Source: Escherichia coli
GTDB lineage: Bacteria > Pseudomonadota > Gammaproteobacteria > Enterobacterales > Enterobacteriaceae
Direction: 5' to 3' (one strand)
Length of the DNA stretch: 64,000 nt
NCBI RefSeq assembly: GCF_011045215.1
Contig: NZ_CP049201.1
Shown: one piece after another, positions 2,497 through 41,522 of the stretch
How the letters are laid out: every line of letters starts with the position of its first letter
How positions within the stretch are numbered: position 1 is the stretch's first letter
Notes under the pieces: generated by a model
What the model was told of the DNA's origin: nothing
The model's input: only the letters and a program-made list of their open reading frames with translations
Database searches by the model: none
Translations under genes and position numbers: made by a program

Positions 2497-3621
2497 ATGG
2501 TCGATACAGAAATTTGGCTGCGTTTAATGAGTATCAGCAGCTTGTACGGCGATGATATGGTCCGTATAGCTCACTGGCTGGCAAGACAGTCGCATATTGA
2601 TGCGGTTGTATTGCAGCAAACAGGGCTTACATTGCGGCAGGCACAACGCTTTCTTTCATTTCCGCGGAAGAGTATCGAAAGCTCACTTTGTTGGTTGGAG
2701 CAACCCAACCATCATTTAATCCCTGCGGACAGCGAATTTTATCCTCCTCAACTTCTGGCGACGACAGATTACCCCGGCGCACTGTTTGTTGAAGGAGAAC
2801 TGCACGCGCTGCATTCATTTCAGCTTGCCGTAGTGGGGAGTCGGGCGCATTCATTGTATGGCGAGCGATGGGGACGATTATTTTGCGAAACTCTGGCGAA
2901 GCATGGAGTGACAATTACGAGTGGACTGGCGCGTGGAATCGATGGTGTAGCGCATAAAGCAGCCTTACAGGTAAATGGCGTCAGCATTGCTGTATTGGGG
3001 AATGGACTTAATACCATTCATCCCCGCCGCCATGCCCGACTGGCTACCAGTTTGCTTGAACATGGTGGGGCACTTGTCTCGGAATTTCCCCTCGATGTTC
3101 CACCCCTTGCTTACAATTTCCCACGAAGAAATCGCATTATCAGTGGTCTAAGTAAAGGTGTACTGGTGGTGGAAGCGGCTTTGCGCAGTGGTTCGTTGGT
3201 GACAGCACGTTGTGCGCTTGAGCAGGGGCGTGAAGTTTTTGCCTTGCCAGGACCAATAGGGAATCCGGGAAGCGAAGGGCCTCACTGGTTAATAAAACAA
3301 GGTGCGATTCTTGTGACGGAACCGGAAGAAATTCTGGAAAACTTGCAATTTGGATTGCACTGGTTGCCAGACGCCCCTGAAAATTCATTTTATTCACCAG
3401 ATCAGGAAGACGTGGCATTGCCATTTCCTGAGCTCCTGGCTAACGTAGGAGATGAGGTAACACCTGTTGACGTCGTCGCTGAACGTGCCGGCCAACCTGT
3501 GCCAGAGGTAGTTACTCAACTACTCGAACTGGAGTTAGCAGGATGGATCGCAGCTGTACCCGGCGGCTATGTCCGATTGAGGAGGGCATGCCATGTTCGA
3601 CGTACTAATGTATTTGTTTGA
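2497..3621 (+). CDS. dprA: DNA-processing protein DprA/Smf
   Basis: 374-aa ORF, divergent from def; DprA/Smf Rossmann-like domain recognisable in translation. Confidence 0.9.
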
Positions 3622-4066
3622 AACCTATATTCACACAGAAGCTGAGTTGCGTGTGGATCAAGACAAACTTGAACAGGATCTTACCGACGCAGGATTTGAT
3701 CGAGAAGATATCTACAATGCCCTGCTTTGGCTGGAAAAGCTTGCGGATTATCAGGAAGGACTGGCAGAACCGATGCAACTGGCCTCTGATCCACTCTCCA
3801 TGCGTATTTATACCCCTGAGGAGTGTGAAAGACTGGATGCCAGCTGTCGTGGTTTTCTGCTTTTCCTTGAGCAAATTCAGGTGCTTAACCTTGAAACCCG
3901 TGAAATGGTGATAGAGCGAGTGCTCGCGCTGGATACCGCAGAGTTCGACCTGGAAGACCTGAAATGGGTAATCCTGATGGTGTTGTTCAATATTCCGGGC
4001 TGCGAAAATGCGTACCAGCAAATGGAAGAATTACTCTTTGAAGTGAATGAAGGTATGCTGCATTAA
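3593..4066 (+). CDS. smg: Smg protein (DUF494)
   Basis: 157-aa [33 protein letters not shown]...; start overlaps dprA 3' end by 29 nt. Confidence 0.9.
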
Positions 4067-4094
4067 TCATTTCTTTAATTCAGCATAAGTTGTT

Positions 4095-4637
4095 ATGGCG
4101 AAATCAGCACTGTTCACGGTGCGTAATAATGAATCCTGCCCAAAATGCGGGGCTGAACTGGTTATTCGATCCGGGAAACACGGTCCGTTTCTTGGCTGCT
4201 CACAGTATCCGGCGTGTGACTACGTCCGTCCTCTGAAATCTTCAGCGGATGGACATATTGTCAAAGTTCTGGAGGGGCAGGTTTGCCCTGCATGTGGCGC
4301 AAATCTGGTATTACGCCAGGGACGCTTTGGTATGTTTATTGGTTGCAGTAACTACCCTGAATGCGAACATACCGAACTTATCGATAAACCGGACGAAACA
4401 GCAATTACATGTCCCCAATGCCGGACGGGCCATCTGGTCCAGCGCCGCTCCCGTTATGGCAAAACATTTCACTCCTGTGATCGCTACCCGGAGTGTCAAT
4501 TTGCCATTAACTTCAAACCCATAGCTGGAGAATGCCCTGAGTGTCATTATCCGCTACTCATCGAAAAGAAAACCGCGCAGGGTGTAAAACACTTTTGTGC
4601 CAGTAAACAATGTGGAAAGCCGGTTTCGGCGGAATAA
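4095..4637 (+). CDS. yrdD: Topoisomerase-I-C-terminal-like zinc-ribbon DNA-binding protein YrdD
   Basis: 180-aa ORF with three repeated C-x2-C ... C-x4-C zinc-ribbon units ([12 protein letters not shown]; [12 protein letters not shown]; CPQCR..CDRYPEC) plus a fourth CPEC. Confidence 0.85.
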
Positions 4638-4641
4638 TAAC

Positions 4642-5214
4642 GTGAATAATAACCTGCAAGGAGACGCTATCGCAGCTGCGATAGATGTCCTCAATGAAGA
4701 ACGTGTCATCGCCTATCCAACGGAAGCCGTTTTCGGCGTCGGGTGCGATCCTGATAGCGAAACAGCAGTGATGCGACTGTTGGAGTTAAAACAGCGTCCG
4801 GTTGATAAGGGGCTGATTTTAATCGCGGCAAATTACGAGCAGCTTAAACCCTATATTGATGACACCATGCTGACTGATGCGCAGCGTGAAACCATTTTTT
4901 CCCGCTGGCCAGGTCCTGTCACCTTTGTCTTTCCCGCGCCTGCGACAACACCGCGCTGGTTGACGGGCCGCTTTGATTCGCTTGCTGTACGAGTCACCGA
5001 CCATCCGTTGGTGGTTGCTTTGTGCCAAGCTTATGGTAAACCGCTGGTTTCTACCAGTGCCAACTTGAGTGGATTGCCACCTTGTCGAACAGTAGACGAA
5101 GTTCGCGCACAATTTGGCGCGGCGTTCCCGGTTGTGCCTGGTGAAACGGGGGGGCGTTTAAATCCTTCAGAAATCCGCGATGCCCTGACGGGTGAACTGT
5201 TTCGACAGGGGTAA
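4642..5214 (+). CDS. tsaC: L-threonylcarbamoyladenylate synthase TsaC (YrdC/RimN)
   Basis: GTG start at 4642 gives the 190-aa protein [38 protein letters not shown]... (YrdC/Sua5 fold); the ORF-track entry 4597..5214 is an upstream in-frame extension. Confidence 0.85.
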
Positions 5215-5218
5215 CATA

Positions 5219-6037
5219 ATGGAAACCTATGCTGTTTTTGGTAATCCGATAGCCCACAGCAAATCGCCATTCATTCATCAGCAATTTGCTCAGCAACTGA
5301 ATATTGAACATCCCTATGGGCGCGTGTTGGCACCCATCAATGATTTCATCAACACACTGAACGCTTTCTTTCGTGCTGGTGGTAAAGGTGCGAATGTGAC
5401 GGTGCCTTTTAAAGAAGAGGCTTTTGCCAGAGCGGATGAGCTTACTGAACGGGCAGCGTTGGCTGGTGCTGTTAATACCCTCATGCGGTTAGAAGATGGA
5501 CGCCTGCTGGGTGACAATACCGATGGTGTAGGCTTGTTAAGCGATCTGGAACGTCTGTCTTTTATCCGCCCTGGTTTACGTATTCTGCTTATCGGCGCTG
5601 GTGGAGCATCTCGCGGCGTACTACTGCCACTCCTTTCCCTGGACTGTGCGGTGACAATCACTAATCGGACGGTATCCCGCGCGGAAGAGTTGGCTAAATT
5701 GTTTGCGCACACTGGCAGTATTCAGGCGTTGGGTATGGACGAACTGGAAGGTCATGAGTTTGATCTCATTATTAATGCAACATCCAGTGGCATCAGTGGT
5801 GATATTCCGGCGATCCCGTCATCGCTCATTCATCCAGGCATTTATTGCTATGACATGTTCTATCAGAAAGGAAAAACTCCTTTTCTGGCATGGTGTGAGC
5901 AGCGAGGCTCAAAGCGTAATGCTGATGGTTTAGGAATGCTGGTGGCACAGGCGGCTCATGCCTTCCTTCTTTGGCATGGCGTTCTGCCTGATGTAGAACC
6001 GGTCATCAAACTATTGCAACAGGAGTTGTCAGCGTGA
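5219..6037 (+). CDS. aroE: Shikimate dehydrogenase
   Basis: Internal ATG at 5219 gives 272 aa [28 protein letters not shown]...; NADP-binding GAGGASRG motif present. Confidence 0.9.
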
Positions 6038-6291
6038 ATCAGGCCATCCAGTTTCCGGACAGGGAAGAGTGGGACGAGAATAAAAAATGTGTATGTTTTC
6101 CCGCTCTCGTGAATGGCATGCAACTGACATGTGCGATCTCTGGCGATAGCCTGGCGTATCGCTTTACTGGAGATACGCCAGAGCAGTGGTTAGCGAGTTT
6201 TCGTCAGCATCGCTGGGACCTGGAAGAAGAAGCGGAAAACTTAATTCAGGAACAAAGTGAAGATGATCAAGGTTGGGTCTGGTTACCCTGA
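6034..6291 (+). CDS. yrdB: DUF1488 family protein YrdB
   Basis: 85-aa [35 protein letters not shown]...; start overlaps aroE stop. Confidence 0.8.
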
Positions 6292-6821
6292 TCCAGGTAT
6301 TCGTCTTTCCATTTCACGTAATTATTCGCGGAGTAACGTAACCCAGCCTTCTCTTCATCACTTAACGGGCGGATCTGTTTGACGGGACTACCGAGATACA
6401 GATATCCGCTCTCCAGCCGTTTATTTTGTGGGACCAGACTACCCGCACCAATCATCACATCATCTTCTACTATTGCGCCATCAAGTAAAATTGAGCCCAT
6501 CCCAACCAAAACTCGATTGCCAATGGTGCAGCCGTGGAGCATCACCTTGTGACCAACAGTGACATCTTCGCCAATGGTTAATGGGTTGCCATCTGGGTTG
6601 TACGAGGATTTATGAGTGACATGCAACATACTGCCATCCTGGATATTGGTGCGTGCTCCGATCTGTACATAATGTACATCTCCACGAATCACAACGAGCG
6701 GCCAGATCCCCACATCATCAGCCAGACGAACGTCACCAATCACGACACTGCTATCGTCGATCATTACGCGCTGACCGATTTGTGGAAAAAGATCGCGGTA
6801 TGGGCGTAAAACATCAGACAT
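6267..6821 (-). CDS. yrdA: Gamma-carbonic-anhydrase-like hexapeptide-repeat protein YrdA
   Basis: ATG at 6821 gives 184 aa MSDVLRPYRDLFPQIGQRVMIDDSSVVIGDV... (left-handed beta-helix repeats); the 293-aa track ORF is an N-terminal over-extension running into the rrn promoter region. Confidence 0.85.
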   Translation of the reverse strand: MSDVLRPYRDLFPQIGQRVMIDDSSVVIGDVRLADDVGIWPLVVIRGDVHYVQIGARTNIQDGSMLHVTHKSSYNPDGNPLTIGEDVTVGHKVMLHGCTIGNRVLVGMGSILLDGAIVEDDVMIGAGSLVPQNKRLESGYLYLGSPVKQIRPLSDEEKAGLRYSANNYVKWKDEYLDQGNQTQP

Positions 6822-6929
6822 ACTTACCTCAGCAATAAATGATTTACTAATGACTTTGGGGGCATTATTGGCCTTGTGCAAGTCTTTTAGTATGCAAAAA
6901 AGCACCGTTTTGTGTGCGATTGCAGCAAA

Positions 6930-7001
6930 AAGGGTGAAAAAACAACAAACAGAAAAAAAGATCAAAAAAATACTTGTGCAAAAAATTGGGATCCCTATAA
7001 T
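6930..7001 (+). promoter_or_regulatory. rrnD P1 promoter with A-rich UP element
   Basis: TTGTGC (6974-6979), 16-bp spacer, TATAAT (6996-7001), GC-rich discriminator GCGCC; preceded by an A-rich tract 6935-6973 typical of rrn P1 UP elements. Confidence 0.75.
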
Positions 7002-7081
7002 GCGCCTCCGTTGAGACGACAACGTGAAACACTTCACAGGATGGTCGGAACAACGAAGAGAAAAAACCCTGAAATTCAGGG

Positions 7082-7109
7082 TTGACTCTGAAAGAGGAAA
7101 GCGTAATAT
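7082..7109 (+). promoter_or_regulatory. rrnD P2 promoter
   Basis: TTGACT (7082-7087) and TAATAT (7104-7109) with 16-bp spacer, about 100 bp downstream of P1 as in E. coli rrn operons. Confidence 0.7.
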
Positions 7110-7149
7110 ACGCCACCTCGCGACAGTGAGCTGAAAGCCGCGTCGCAAC

Positions 7150-7162
7150 TGCTCTTTAACAA
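7150..7162 (+). promoter_or_regulatory. rrn leader boxA antitermination element
   Basis: TGCTCTTTAACAA matches the boxA consensus between P2 and mature 16S. Confidence 0.75.
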
Positions 7163-7293
7163 TTTATCAGACAATCTGTGTGGGCACTCGAAGATACGGA
7201 TTCTTAACGTCGCAAGACGAAAAATGAATACCAAGTCTCAAGAGTGAACACGTAATTCATTACGAAGTTTAATTCTTTGAGCATCAAACTTTT

Positions 7294-8835
<1,542 letters not shown>

Positions 8836-24383: not shown

Positions 24384-25046
24384 ATGGCAAAAAGAACCAA
24401 AGCCGAAGCTCTGAAGACCCGGCAAGAACTGATTGAAACTGCCATCGCCCAGTTTGCGCAGCATGGCGTAAGCAAGACGACGCTCAACGACATTGCCGAC
24501 GCCGCTAACGTTACGCGTGGCGCTATCTACTGGCACTTCGAAAACAAGACTCAACTGTTTAATGAGATGTGGTTGCAACAGCCTTCATTGCGGGAGTTAA
24601 TCCAGGATCACTTGACGGCTGGGTTAGAGCATGACCCGTTTCAACAATTGCGTGAAAAATTGATTGTCGGCTTGCAATATATTGCCAAAATTCCCCGCCA
24701 GCAGGCGTTGCTGAAAATCTTATATCACAAATGTGAATTTAATGATGAGATGCTGGCCGAGGGAGTGATACGCGAAAAGATGGGCTTTAATCCGCAGACT
24801 CTCCGTGAAGTATTGCAGGCGTGTCAGCAAAAAGGTTGTGTAGCAAATAACCTCGATTTAGATGTTGTGATAATTATTATTGATGGTGCCTTCAGCGGAA
24901 TTGTTCAAAACTGGTTAATGAATATGGCGGGTTATGATCTTTATAAACAAGCCCCCGCTCTTGTCGATAACGTATTAAGAATGTTCATGCCAGATGAAAA
25001 CATAACGAAATTAATTCATCAAACGAATGAATTAAGTGTCATGTAA
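24384..25046 (+). CDS. acrS: TetR-family transcriptional repressor AcrS (EnvR)
   Basis: 220-aa ORF divergent from acrE; N-terminal TetR HTH (SKTTLNDIADAANVTRGAIYWHFENK). Confidence 0.92.
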   Translation: MAKRTKAEALKTRQELIETAIAQFAQHGVSKTTLNDIADAANVTRGAIYWHFENKTQLFNEMWLQQPSLRELIQDHLTAGLEHDPFQQLREKLIVGLQYIAKIPRQQALLKILYHKCEFNDEMLAEGVIREKMGFNPQTLREVLQACQQKGCVANNLDLDVVIIIIDGAFSGIVQNWLMNMAGYDLYKQAPALVDNVLRMFMPDENITKLIHQTNELSVM

Positions 25047-25054
25047 ATTCACAT

Positions 25055-25228
25055 TCAGTCCTGAAAATTCAGTTCGTCACAGTTAACCAGTTTTAGTGGA
25101 TTAACTGAGTTCATATTGCGGCATTTGTCTGTTTCTGTTGCCAGCAGTTCAATCCACTGCATCAGTAAAGTATCAAACAGAAAAACGAAGACAGCGAAAA
25201 CGACGAGCCACCAATACTTGCGAATCAT
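25055..25228 (-). CDS. yhdU: Small membrane protein YhdU (DUF2556)
   Basis: Internal ATG gives 57 aa MIRKYWWLVVFAVFVFLFDTLLMQWIELLATE...; single TM helix. Confidence 0.7.
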   Translation of the reverse strand: MIRKYWWLVVFAVFVFLFDTLLMQWIELLATETDKCRNMNSVNPLKLVNCDELNFQD

Positions 25229-28790: not shown

Positions 28791-30242
28791 TTATTTATCA
28801 GTAGTCAAAACGGTAGCTTGCGGGACGGATGTACCGAAACGGTTTCCGACCAGGAAAGCCAGCAAACTTAGTAGTAACGAGGGCACGATAGGGTGGAAGC
28901 CCAGGTACTGAATATTCAGCGTCGCGAGTACGGCATACAGCACGCCGCCAACGATCATCGCACTTAGCGCGCCTTTGGCGTTGGCGCGTTCCCAGTAAAG
29001 ACCCAGCACCAGCGGCCACAGGAAAACGGCTTCCAGCCCACCGAAGGCCAACAAATTCAGCCAGATGATCATTTCTGGCGGCTTCCAGGCGGCAAGCAGC
29101 AGCAACGCGCCGAGAACTAACGTAATTACCGCCGACATCCGCTTCAGACGCGTCTCGTTTTGCATTTGATCCGGACGGATATTCAGATAGAGATCTTTAA
29201 TGATCGTAGCGGAACTTTGTAGCAATTGGGCGTTAATTGTCGACATGATCGCAGCCATAGGTGCAGCCAGAAAGATCCCGGCAGCAAACGGTGGCAGCAC
29301 TTTTACCATTAACGTCGGGATCACCAGATCCGGTACGGTGAGATCGGGGATCACTGCACGACCTAACGCTCCTGCCAGGTGCATACCGAACATCAGGATT
29401 GCGACTACAATCGTACCGATGATGATCCCCCGGTGTACTGCTTTGCTGTCTTTATAAGAGATACAGCGCACCGCAGTATGCGGCAGGCCTATAACGCCAA
29501 AGCACACCAGTACCCAGAACGACGTCATAAAGGCAGGCGACAGAATATCGTCAGCGCCTTGTGGCGTAACCAGTTGCGGATCGATGGTTTGCAAGGTCTG
29601 TACTGCGTTGCTTAAGCCGCCAGCGGCATGTACCACGCCAATAAGCAGCACAACGGTGCCAATCAGCATCACAAGCCCTTGCATGGTGTCGTTCAGCACG
29701 CTGGCGCGAAAGCCACCAAAGGCGGTATATAACGCAATGCTGATACCAAAAATCAGCAGCCCGGTTTCATAAGGAATACCCGCCGCGGTTTCCAGCAGGC
29801 GCGCACCGCCGATAAACTGCACGGTCATCGCACCAACGAACGCAACCAGCAAACTCAAACTCGCCAGCCACACCAGAAGACGACTCTGGTAGCGGGCAAA
29901 CAGCATATCGTTCAGCGTCACTGCATTGTAGCGGCGCGCAAGAATCGCAAACTTCTTGCCGAGAATACCGAGCGAAAGCCAGACTGCAGGAAGCTGAATC
30001 ATCGCCAGCAATACCCAGCCAAGGCCGTATTTGTAAGCAGCTCCAGGCCCGCCGATAAACGAACTGGCACTGATATAAGTCGCGGTGAGCGTCATCGCCA
30101 GCACAATACCGCCCATAGAGCGGCTGCCGAGGAAATACTCATTAAGAAAGGTGCCGGTGCTCCGTTTACGCATCGCATAAACCGAGATACCGAACACCAC
30201 TACCAGATAGGCGACCAGCGGTAGAATTACTTCAAGCTGCAT
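28791..30242 (-). CDS. panF: Sodium/pantothenate symporter
   Basis: 483 aa from [26 protein letters not shown]...; SSS-family polytopic transporter; start choice +/-6 nt. Confidence 0.9.
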
Positions 30243-30474
30243 CGTCATCCTCCAGCGGGATATCGCGATAGATAAATTTCACCATCGCCCAGCACAGTCC
30301 AATAAACAGCAGCGGTGTCAGGATGCAGGCCATCTCAAACCAGCGCGGAAAGCCGGTAAAACCGGGGGCAACGCCAGGTAAGTAAGCGGCTACTAACCAT
30401 ACCGCCAGATACAAAAGGGTCAGCCCCAGCGCCCAGCGCGCCTCTTTATGGGCCTGAACAAAACGAGTGTCCAT
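30232..30474 (-). CDS. yhdT: Small membrane protein YhdT (DUF997)
   Basis: 80-aa ORF MDTRFVQAHKEARWALGLTLLYLAVWLVAAYLPG...; immediately upstream of panF. Confidence 0.8.
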   Translation of the reverse strand: MDTRFVQAHKEARWALGLTLLYLAVWLVAAYLPGVAPGFTGFPRWFEMACILTPLLFIGLCWAMVKFIYRDIPLEDDDAA

Positions 30475-39469: not shown

Positions 39470-40063
39470 ATGACTTCTCTGTATTTAGCTTCCGGTTCTC
39501 CGCGTCGTCAGGAGTTACTTGCGCAACTTGGCGTGACCTTTGAACGTATTGTTACGGGCATTGAGGAGCAGCGTCAGCCGCAGGAGAGCGCGCAGCAGTA
39601 TGTTGTGCGTCTGGCGCGCGAGAAAGCACGGGCAGGTGTCGCGCAAACGGCGAAGGATCTCCCGGTGCTGGGTGCGGATACTATCGTTATCCTGAACGGA
39701 GAAGTGCTGGAGAAACCGCGCGACGCAGAGCATGCGGCGCAGATGTTGCGCAAATTATCGGGTCAGACCCATCAGGTGATGACGGCAGTGGCGTTGGCCG
39801 ACAGCCAGCACATTCTCGATTGCCTGGTGGTCACCGATGTGACTTTCAGAACGTTAACAGACGAAGACATCGCGGGCTATGTCGCCAGCGGTGAACCGTT
39901 AGATAAAGCAGGTGCATACGGTATTCAGGGGCTGGGTGGCTGTTTTGTCAGGAAGATAAATGGCAGCTATCACGCCGTAGTCGGCTTACCGCTGGTTGAA
40001 ACGTATGAATTATTAAGTAATTTTAACGCACTGCGTGAGAAAAGGGATAAACATGACGGCTGA
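39470..40063 (+). CDS. yhdE: Maf-family nucleoside triphosphate pyrophosphatase YhdE
   Basis: 197-aa [31 protein letters not shown]...; Maf family. Confidence 0.92.
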
Positions 40064-41522
40064 ATTGTTAGTAAACGTAACGCCTTCGGAAACGCGAGTG
40101 GCGTATATTGATGGCGGTATTCTGCAGGAAATTCATATTGAACGTGAGGCGCGACGCGGAATAGTAGGCAATATCTACAAGGGTCGTGTAAGTCGTGTAC
40201 TTCCGGGTATGCAGGCGGCTTTTGTAGATATTGGGCTGGATAAAGCCGCGTTTCTTCATGCTTCCGACATCATGCCGCACACCGAATGTGTGGCGGGTGA
40301 AGAACAAAAGCAATTCACGGTGCGCGACATCTCGGAACTGGTTCGTCAGGGGCAAGATCTGATGGTGCAGGTGGTGAAAGATCCGCTTGGCACTAAGGGG
40401 GCGCGCCTGACCACCGATATCACGCTGCCTTCTCGCTATCTGGTCTTTATGCCAGGGGCTTCTCACGTTGGTGTTTCCCAACGTATTGAAAGCGAATCAG
40501 AACGTGAACGCCTGAAAAAAGTGGTCGCAGAGTATTGCGACGAGCAGGGCGGGTTTATCATCCGTACCGCAGCGGAAGGGGTTGGCGAGGCTGAACTGGC
40601 CTCCGATGCCGCTTATCTGAAACGCGTCTGGACCAAAGTTATGGAGCGTAAAAAACGCCCGCAGACCCGTTATCAGCTGTACGGCGAACTGGCGCTGGCG
40701 CAGCGTGTTCTGCGTGATTTCGCCGATGCCGAACTGGACCGCATTCGCGTTGACTCACGCCTGACTTACGAAGCATTACTTGAGTTCACCTCGGAGTACA
40801 TTCCCGAGATGACCAGCAAGCTGGAGCATTACACCGGACGCCAGCCGATTTTCGATCTCTTTGATGTCGAAAACGAAATCCAGCGAGCGCTGGAACGCAA
40901 AGTAGAACTGAAATCCGGTGGTTATCTGATTATCGACCAGACCGAAGCGATGACCACCGTGGACATCAATACCGGAGCGTTTGTCGGTCATCGCAATCTT
41001 GACGACACCATTTTCAATACCAATATTGAAGCGACGCAGGCTATCGCTCGCCAGTTACGGTTGCGCAATCTGGGCGGGATTATCATTATTGATTTCATCG
41101 ATATGAATAATGAAGATCACCGCCGCCGAGTGCTGCACTCGCTGGAGCAGGCGTTGAGCAAAGACCGGGTGAAAACCAGCGTTAATGGTTTTTCGGCGCT
41201 GGGGCTGGTGGAGATGACGCGTAAACGCACCCGCGAAAGCATTGAGCACGTACTGTGTAACGAATGCCCAACCTGCCACGGTCGCGGAACGGTGAAAACC
41301 GTGGAAACGGTATGCTATGAAATCATGCGCGAGATTGTTCGTGTCCACCATGCTTACGACTCCGACCGTTTCCTGGTCTATGCTTCTCCGGCAGTAGCTG
41401 AAGCCTTGAAAGGCGAAGAGTCACACTCGCTGGCGGAAGTGGAAATTTTCGTTGGTAAACAGGTTAAAGTACAAATTGAACCGCTCTATAACCAGGAGCA
41501 GTTTGACGTCGTAATGATGTAA
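40053..41522 (+). CDS. rng: Ribonuclease G
   Basis: 489 aa from ATG at 40053 ([31 protein letters not shown]...); S1 domain plus RNase E/G catalytic core; start overlaps yhdE 3' end by 11 nt. Confidence 0.95.

Follow-up and report, generated by a model that had tools for sequence, protein, structure and literature searches.

The convergent genes yrdB and yrdA of Escherichia coli share 25 nt at their 3' ends, an overlap that is real, ordinary and already known. In the 64-kb window, by which we mean the whole stretch of DNA that was analysed, yrdB occupies positions 6034-6291 on the plus strand and yrdA positions 6267-6821 on the minus strand, and both the open reading frame listing and the RefSeq/PGAP annotation give 6267-6291 as the segment common to the two. 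Each gene contributes its stop codon and its final seven sense codons to this dual-coding segment, in which yrdB reads ...QGWVWLP* and yrdA reads ...QGNQTQP*, and both genes terminate with TGA. We consider it quite likely that this tail-to-tail overlap, genuine but unexceptional, is a conserved by-product of stop-codon drift.

yrdB encodes an 85-aa DUF1488 protein from a GTG start codon and is the final gene of the smg-yrdD-tsaC-aroE-yrdB transcription unit. The TGA stop of aroE (shikimate dehydrogenase, 5219-6037, plus strand) overlaps the yrdB start by 4 nt (GTGA, 6034-6037). On the opposite strand, translation from the ATG at 6821 yields the 184-aa YrdA, which annotation, PDB and Pfam identify as a gamma-carbonic-anhydrase-family (left-handed beta-helix) protein, and the minus-strand ORF ends at 6267. 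yrdA sits directly upstream of the rrnD promoters, and the rrnD 16S gene is annotated on the plus strand from approximately 7294. The RefSeq annotation was taken from strain OkiPb01695, which is 100% identical to the window over 5200-7200 (locus coordinate = window position + 801); colinearity between the two is not maintained across the full 64 kb. Matches to the 5200-7200 region were found in 5,424 of 5,426 complete genomes.

The same organization is present in K-12 MG1655, where yrdA (3429236-3429790, +) and yrdB (3429766-3430023, -) also have 25 nt in common (K-12 position = 3436057 minus window position). Over the two genes the window and K-12 differ at 11 positions, only one of which lies in the overlap (6273), and this change is synonymous in both frames. 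The ORF listing, the RefSeq annotation and K-12 MG1655 thus all confirm the 25-bp 3' overlap described in an earlier note on this DNA. That note had likened it to two other overlaps, and their lengths, read directly from the window sequence, are also correct: 29 nt for dprA/smg (dprA 2497-3621, smg 3593-4066) and 11 nt for yhdE/rng (yhdE 39470-40063, rng 40053-41522). The likeness does not extend to mechanism, as these two pairs are arranged on the same strand within operons, whereas yrdB and yrdA are antisense to one another. yrdB/yrdA is the only one of the six convergent CDS pairs in the window to overlap, the next tightest being acrS/yhdU with a 2-nt gap.

Short ORFs are often over-extended by gene callers, and yrdB is both small and initiated at GTG; the overlap might on these grounds be an annotation artefact, with one of the two proteins truly ending or starting elsewhere. 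Comparison of both proteins with their families effectively refutes this. YrdB residues 5-84 of 85 match the Pfam DUF1488 model (PF07369) with an E-value of 2.4e-33 and 114.4 bits (gathering cutoff 22), spanning positions 1-82 of the 82-position profile, and YrdB is therefore a member of this family, for which the structure of a YrdB homologue has been solved (2GPI). In 28 aligned homologues, some with as little as 35% identity, the N-terminal MNQ and a C-terminal Gly/hydrophobic/x/Leu-Ile motif are kept, so that both the start of the protein and its C-terminal strand are conserved to 35-40% identity. YrdA residues 2-184 match the chain of PDB entry 3TIO, 'Protein YrdA', with one residue different (E 2.5e-121); the deposited chain reaches the final residue of YrdA, and the Salmonella orthologue (3R3R) is of equal length. 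The hexapeptide repeats of YrdA (Hexapep Pfam match, 68.7 bits) together with its identity to 3TIO place it, by sequence, among the gamma-carbonic-anhydrase-like proteins.

Codon-position entropies were calculated over a set of 77 sequences (76 species loci and the window). Variation is concentrated at third positions in both genes, with 1.29 bits in yrdB compared with 0.73 and 0.61 bits at positions 1 and 2, and 1.34 bits in yrdA compared with 0.43 and 0.38 bits. Column analysis of the same 77 sequences revealed that both stops are invariant and are always TGA. Both frames are real coding sequence through the overlap, and the pair is a convergent overlap of two coding sequences.

The two frames are related in phase 123:213, in which codon positions 1 and 2 of one gene lie opposite 2 and 1 of its partner and third positions face each other. 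In this phase the two TGG (Trp) codons and the TGA stop of yrdB each impose CAx (Gln/His) on yrdA, and the YrdA residues seen, Q-x-x-Q/H-x-Q/H-P, match this constraint. Reciprocally, the yrdA TGA imposes CAx (Gln/His) on yrdB, which is also observed. Substitutions in the tails are coupled as the phase predicts, with the YrdB/YrdA pairs V/T, I/I, F/N, Y/Y and L/S. The last base of the yrdA stop, at 6267, is always T, even though the yrdB codon that it completes varies widely in meaning among species (D, A, S, N, V, Y, T, G and I), which is direct evidence that selection acts on the position of the yrdA stop. The third positions that neither frame constrains (6270, 6273, 6279 and 6285) carry 1.3-1.7 bits, similar to the flanks; as they vary normally, no constraint beyond dual coding is visible. 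The YrdA tail following ...DYL(A/D)Q ranges from 0 to 10 residues depending on lineage, and distant DUF1488 homologues retain a G-x-hydrophobic-x-L ending. Because the end of YrdB lies within its domain and the tail of YrdA is variable, it is YrdA that reaches into yrdB.

When one genome per species was scanned, a yrdB relative turned up at 80 loci, and both stops were located in each. In 76 of these 80 other species genomes, nearly all of them Enterobacteriaceae, the genes share exactly 25 nt; among the genera are Escherichia, Salmonella, Citrobacter, Klebsiella, Raoultella, Enterobacter, Kosakonia, Kluyvera, Cedecea and Buttiauxella. The overlap is 19 nt at two loci, where a Trp-to-Tyr change in yrdB makes an earlier antisense stop, and 40 nt at a third; in the remaining locus yrdA is apparently disrupted. 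All three exceptions in length result from a yrdB codon change that creates or removes an antisense stop. While an open antisense frame of 25 nt is unremarkable by itself, its conservation exceeds chance.

More distant DUF1488 representatives were collected by an exhaustive protein search, and the layout of their contigs was inspected. The convergent aroE-yrdB/yrdA arrangement is kept in these contigs as well, with overlaps of 46 nt in Pantoea stewartii, 28 nt in Edwardsiella tarda, 25 nt in a Rouxiella-like and 13 nt in an Edaphovirga-like genome, 7 nt in a MAG with a hemF-aroE context, and 4 nt in both Enterovibrio (TTAA) and one further lineage (CTAG). The genes are separated by gaps of 11 nt in Plesiomonas, 1 nt in Ferrimonas and 69 nt in lineage L097, where a GC-rich hairpin lies within the gap. 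The length is 1 mod 3 in all of the Enterobacterales loci examined, as it is in three of the five from other orders, which means that the frame relation has stayed constant and only the positions of the stops have shifted. The existence of relatives with 11-nt, 1-nt and 69-nt gaps indicates that the overlap itself is dispensable.

Based on these comparisons, we propose that aroE-yrdB and yrdA have been convergent since before Enterobacterales, Vibrionales and some Alteromonadales split, and that, with almost no spacer between the genes, small shifts of a stop codon would run one frame into the other. Two causes account for the fixed 25 nt of the Enterobacteriaceae. The YrdB C-terminus (GW-V/I-WL-S/P) belongs to the conserved DUF1488 fold, and since its TGG and TGA codons force CAx on the antisense strand, yrdA is unable to stop earlier; the yrdA TGA, in turn, is kept in position by selection. 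The final six to seven residues of YrdA are poorly conserved and would be a passenger tail. A one-step origin by conversion of TTAA to TTGA was also considered and was downgraded to speculation, as the YrdA C-termini of the outgroups are offset by two codons.

Stop-codon migration is also the origin suggested for overlaps of this class in general. Lillo and Krakauer (2007) put the number of convergent CDS overlaps in E. coli at 58, attributed them to stop-codon mutation, and found a predicted intrinsic terminator for only 20% of the genes involved (PMC2174442). yrdB/yrdA, one of these roughly 58 pairs, fits such an origin and, like most of them, lacks an intrinsic terminator. It differs from the generic case in its rarer phase, 123:213 being the least common class with 18% of convergent overlaps of at least 5 nt, and in being longer than the modal 4 nt (PMC2174442). 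It is also unusually stable, at exactly 25 nt across approximately 25 genera.

The earlier note had claimed that the two mRNAs would be antisense to each other across their terminal codons. This is necessarily so, and the RNA overlap exceeds 25 nt. Term-seq of cells grown in LB to an OD of 0.4 (Adams et al. 2021) placed an RNA 3' end at K-12 position 3429912 (+) and classed it as antisense to yrdB (PMC7815308). This position corresponds to window position 6145, 122 nt past the yrdA stop and within yrdB. The yrdA-strand transcript therefore passes through the overlap instead of ending before it; its 3' untranslated tail (6145-6266, minus strand) is antisense to yrdB, and the yrdA mRNA spans 147 nt of the 258-nt yrdB. 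Within the region K-12 3429100-3430099, 3429912 is the sole discrete 3' end in the tables of this study, and none is given for the yrdB strand (PMC7815308).

The sequence folds, on the minus strand, into a 10-bp hairpin, CUGGCGUAUC...GAUACGCCAG, at 6151-6181 that finishes 6 nt ahead of the mapped yrdA 3' end and is not followed by a U-tract. Across the 77 sequences, 72.5% of cells can pair in this hairpin, compared with 30-45% in slid controls. As the window itself supplied the structure, and as the hairpin lies within coding DNA, this excess is only suggestive. The yrdA mRNA ends about 122 nt beyond its stop, beside a hairpin located inside yrdB.

Termination on the yrdB strand appears to be of a different kind. 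The SMRT-Cappable-seq supplement reports the operon b3284-b3280, which corresponds to smg-yrdD-tsaC-aroE-yrdB. Bicyclomycin data identify a Rho termination region inside yrdB (Rho score 2.48, p = 1.8e-7) that peaks at window position 6141 on the plus strand (K-12 3429916, minus strand), and bicyclomycin increases read-through into the region antisense to yrdA (PMC7815308). Beyond the yrdB stop, at approximately 6395-6525 on the plus strand, there is a C-rich, G-poor stretch with a C/G ratio of up to 4.0, and from its composition this is a plausible candidate for a Rho-loading (rut) region. The smg-to-yrdB transcript enters the region antisense to yrdA, and Rho limits how far it proceeds.

A scan of 4000-8000 for intrinsic terminators gave none after the stop of either yrdB or yrdA. 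There is no bidirectional intrinsic terminator, as no site lies 3' of either stop and the hairpins present have no U-tract. The scan did return two minus-strand matches at 7065-7114, in the region of rrnD P1/P2 and upstream of the yrdA reading frame, which are unrelated. Searching 5000-7400 against Rfam at a permissive threshold gave no match in aroE, yrdB or yrdA. The plus strand over 6250-6450 folds better than shuffled sequences (z = -3.25), but no RNA 3' end maps to the hairpin formed there. Convergent pairs that do use a bidirectional intrinsic terminator have the same layout as yrdB/yrdA, and lineage L097, with its GC-rich hairpin between the genes, resembles them; the E. coli pair differs in having neither a spacer nor a hairpin followed by a U-tract. 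Transcripts of the yrdB strand are terminated by Rho, and those of the yrdA strand end beside the hairpin inside yrdB. Since there is no room for a shared terminator, each transcript must end inside the opposite gene, and since the transcript ends lie beyond the stops, the two RNAs overlap in sense-antisense orientation by at least 147 nt, forming what has been termed a 'convergent excludon'.

The overlap is itself bracketed by an imperfect 9-bp inverted repeat, GATCAAGGT / ACCCTGATC, found by folding and comparison on both strands at 6265-6293, with arms at 6265-6273 and 6285-6293 and a core in which the two TGA stops pair together. One could regard this repeat as a functional hairpin, acting as a pause or termination signal or as a protective 3' stem-loop for both transcripts, and indeed the minus strand folds as a 9-bp stem, and 71 distinct sequences can typically form 7 to 8 of the 9 pairs on the plus strand. 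Three of these pairs, however, are simply the facing TGA stops, and two more are supplied by the GG and CC of conserved Gly and Ser/Pro codons. Changes in the outer pairs are not compensated, which makes the repeat look like a by-product of symmetric gene ends. Nor does a U-tract follow the repeat on either strand, and no RNA 3' end maps to it, there being zero entries at 34297xx or 34298xx (PMC7815308). We therefore regard a functional role as very improbable and rejected the repeat as an independent element, its pairing being explained by the stops and conserved codons in the absence of compensatory changes.

Whether the antisense arrangement regulates either gene is a separate matter. The overlap could be a selected regulatory device, a true excludon in which transcription of smg-yrdD-tsaC-aroE-yrdB and of yrdA would lower each other through collision or RNase III cleavage. 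Transcript overlap in vivo is documented by the Term-seq 3' end and by the excludome table of Sanmartin et al. (NAR 2025), who used ExcludonFinder on E. coli MG1655 and list yrdA-yrdB itself in Table 1, as one of 165 convergent excludons that occur in half or more of 58 RNA-seq samples (PMC12288877). On the yrdA side, an RNA overlap of no less than 147 nt points in the same direction. The conservation of the layout over several orders of Gammaproteobacteria could reflect selection for co-regulation, and excludon pairs generally have higher synteny than other neighbours (PMC12288877). The above-control pairing of the hairpin at 6151-6181 could likewise mean that a selected RNA element is embedded in yrdB.

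The catalogued excludons are neighbouring opposite-strand genes with 3' transcript overlap and a spacer below average, which also describes yrdA-yrdB. Most of them, however, overlap through their 3' UTRs alone, the intergenic distance averaging 95 nt, while in yrdA-yrdB the coding sequences themselves overlap (PMC12288877). Transcript overlap is consequently obligatory for this pair and uninformative on regulation: overlapping CDSs automatically qualify if both genes are expressed. The comparative data also weigh against a selected device, in that the free third positions of the overlap drift normally and relatives with gaps in place of the overlap exist.

Double-stranded RNA captured with p19 provides a further view. 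None of the clusters in the portion of the p19 tables that was covered is labelled yrdB, though p19 is weak at 3' ends; those listed are in the 5' part of yrdA, aroE, yrdD and smg/smf (PMC7373196, whose supplement uses an older coordinate system shifted by 1978). The authors of the excludon catalogue state that they were unable to validate convergent excludons by p19 capture (PMC12288877). The 5' cluster of yrdA comes from a distinct antisense RNA within that gene (6668-6729, plus strand), placed from PMC2912661, PMC7373196 and the position of its promoter motif: a -10 hexamer, CATAAT, lies at 6668-6673, the transcription start site at approximately 6680, and the p19-captured dsRNA at approximately 6691-6729. 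Mutating this antisense promoter, the sole experiment to address antisense transcription on yrdA directly, left a yrdA::lacZ fusion unchanged (PMC2912661).

Taken together, these observations leave coupling of the two genes by transcriptional interference or RNase III processing, as the earlier note had suggested, unsupported, and we think it unlikely that the overlap has been selected as a regulatory device. A stronger version, in which conservation would reflect function, the smg-yrdD-tsaC-aroE-yrdB unit (t6A tRNA modification, shikimate) and yrdA would form a reciprocal antisense switch, and the hairpin in yrdB would be a conserved yrdA 3'-end element, is more doubtful still. Antisense regulation of this kind would, if true, tie a housekeeping operon to a gamma-carbonic-anhydrase homologue that is poorly understood and lies beside an rRNA operon. 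Any interference between the two genes is, we infer, a weak side effect and not a selected switch.

The classical excludon, Listeria mogR / lmo0675-0677, involves a long, regulated antisense transcript that extends over a whole neighbouring gene and has a demonstrated phenotype. It shares with yrdB/yrdA the antisense relation between adjacent transcripts of opposite strand; we know of nothing comparable to the mogR phenotype for yrdB/yrdA.

Every E. coli annotation contains the overlap, that of K-12 having done so for decades, and an excludon catalogue names the pair; in this sense it is already known. Its value is that of a textbook example. The two frames constrain each other, with TGG and TGA in one dictating CAx in the other and substitutions in the two tails coupled. 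Migration of a stop codon alters the length of the overlap and leaves its phase unchanged. Lastly, where there is no room for a terminator, convergent genes rely on Rho and on structures embedded in their neighbour.

Within the window, yrdB (6034-6291, plus strand) and yrdA (6267-6821, minus strand) share 25 nt at their convergent 3' ends. The next tightest convergent pair is acrS (24384-25046, plus strand) and yhdU (about 25049-25228, minus strand), which are separated by a gap of 2 nt. Other close contacts occur as well. The same-strand genes dprA and smg overlap by 29 nt (3593-3621), and an overlap of exactly this length is also present at loci L085, L087, L090 and L091, which come from Pantoea, Edwardsiella, Plesiomonas and an Edaphovirga-like lineage. 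For yhdT and panF (about 30213-30474, minus strand), the closest strain is annotated with a same-strand overlap of 11 nt. The aroE and yrdB genes have the sequence GTGA in common (6034-6037), and mreC and mreD share 1 nt.

Examination of the relatives of the yrdB/yrdA pair revealed a different arrangement at locus L097, where the two genes are separated by 69 nt and the spacer (L097:2765-2833) contains a GC-rich hairpin, acgaagggagcc...ggctcccttcgt. This hairpin looks like a shared terminator of yrdB and yrdA, whereas E. coli lacks a terminator-like hairpin placed between the two genes. L097 is the sole relative with this 69-nt separation. At L057 (Kluyvera genomosp. 3) the yrdA frame is apparently broken by a stop about 160 nt ahead of the expected end, which may represent a frameshift or a pseudogene.

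The plus-strand RNA spanning 6250-6450 is more stable than shuffled controls, with a folding z-score of -3.25. A long hairpin is found at 6367-6412 (plus strand), about 80-120 nt 3' of the yrdB stop, and GUUUAUUUUGU lies some distance after the hairpin; no 3' end has been mapped to this hairpin in published data. Further into yrdA lies an antisense RNA (6668-6729, plus strand), with a -10 hexamer CATAAT at 6668-6673 and a transcription start site at about 6680. Double-stranded RNA fragments (RNase III, p19-captured) have been reported at about 6691-6729, inside yrdA (PMC7373196), and expression of yrdA::lacZ was unchanged after mutation of the antisense promoter (PMC2912661).

Published Term-seq places a very abundant 'orphan' 3' end at K-12 position 3428984 (about 7073 in the window, plus strand), which falls in the loop of a hairpin at 7065-7083, between the two promoters of the rRNA operon rrnD. 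This promoter region (6931-7172) also gives a sub-threshold Rfam match to the Yersinia sRNA Ysr197 (94 bits versus a gathering score of 167). Among draft-genome contigs with the yrdB-yrdA pair, most have a length of about 26 kb and stop short beyond yrdB, at a distance of between a few hundred bases and roughly 1.5 kb; these breaks are consistent with an rRNA operon being next after yrdA in those draft-genome genera too.
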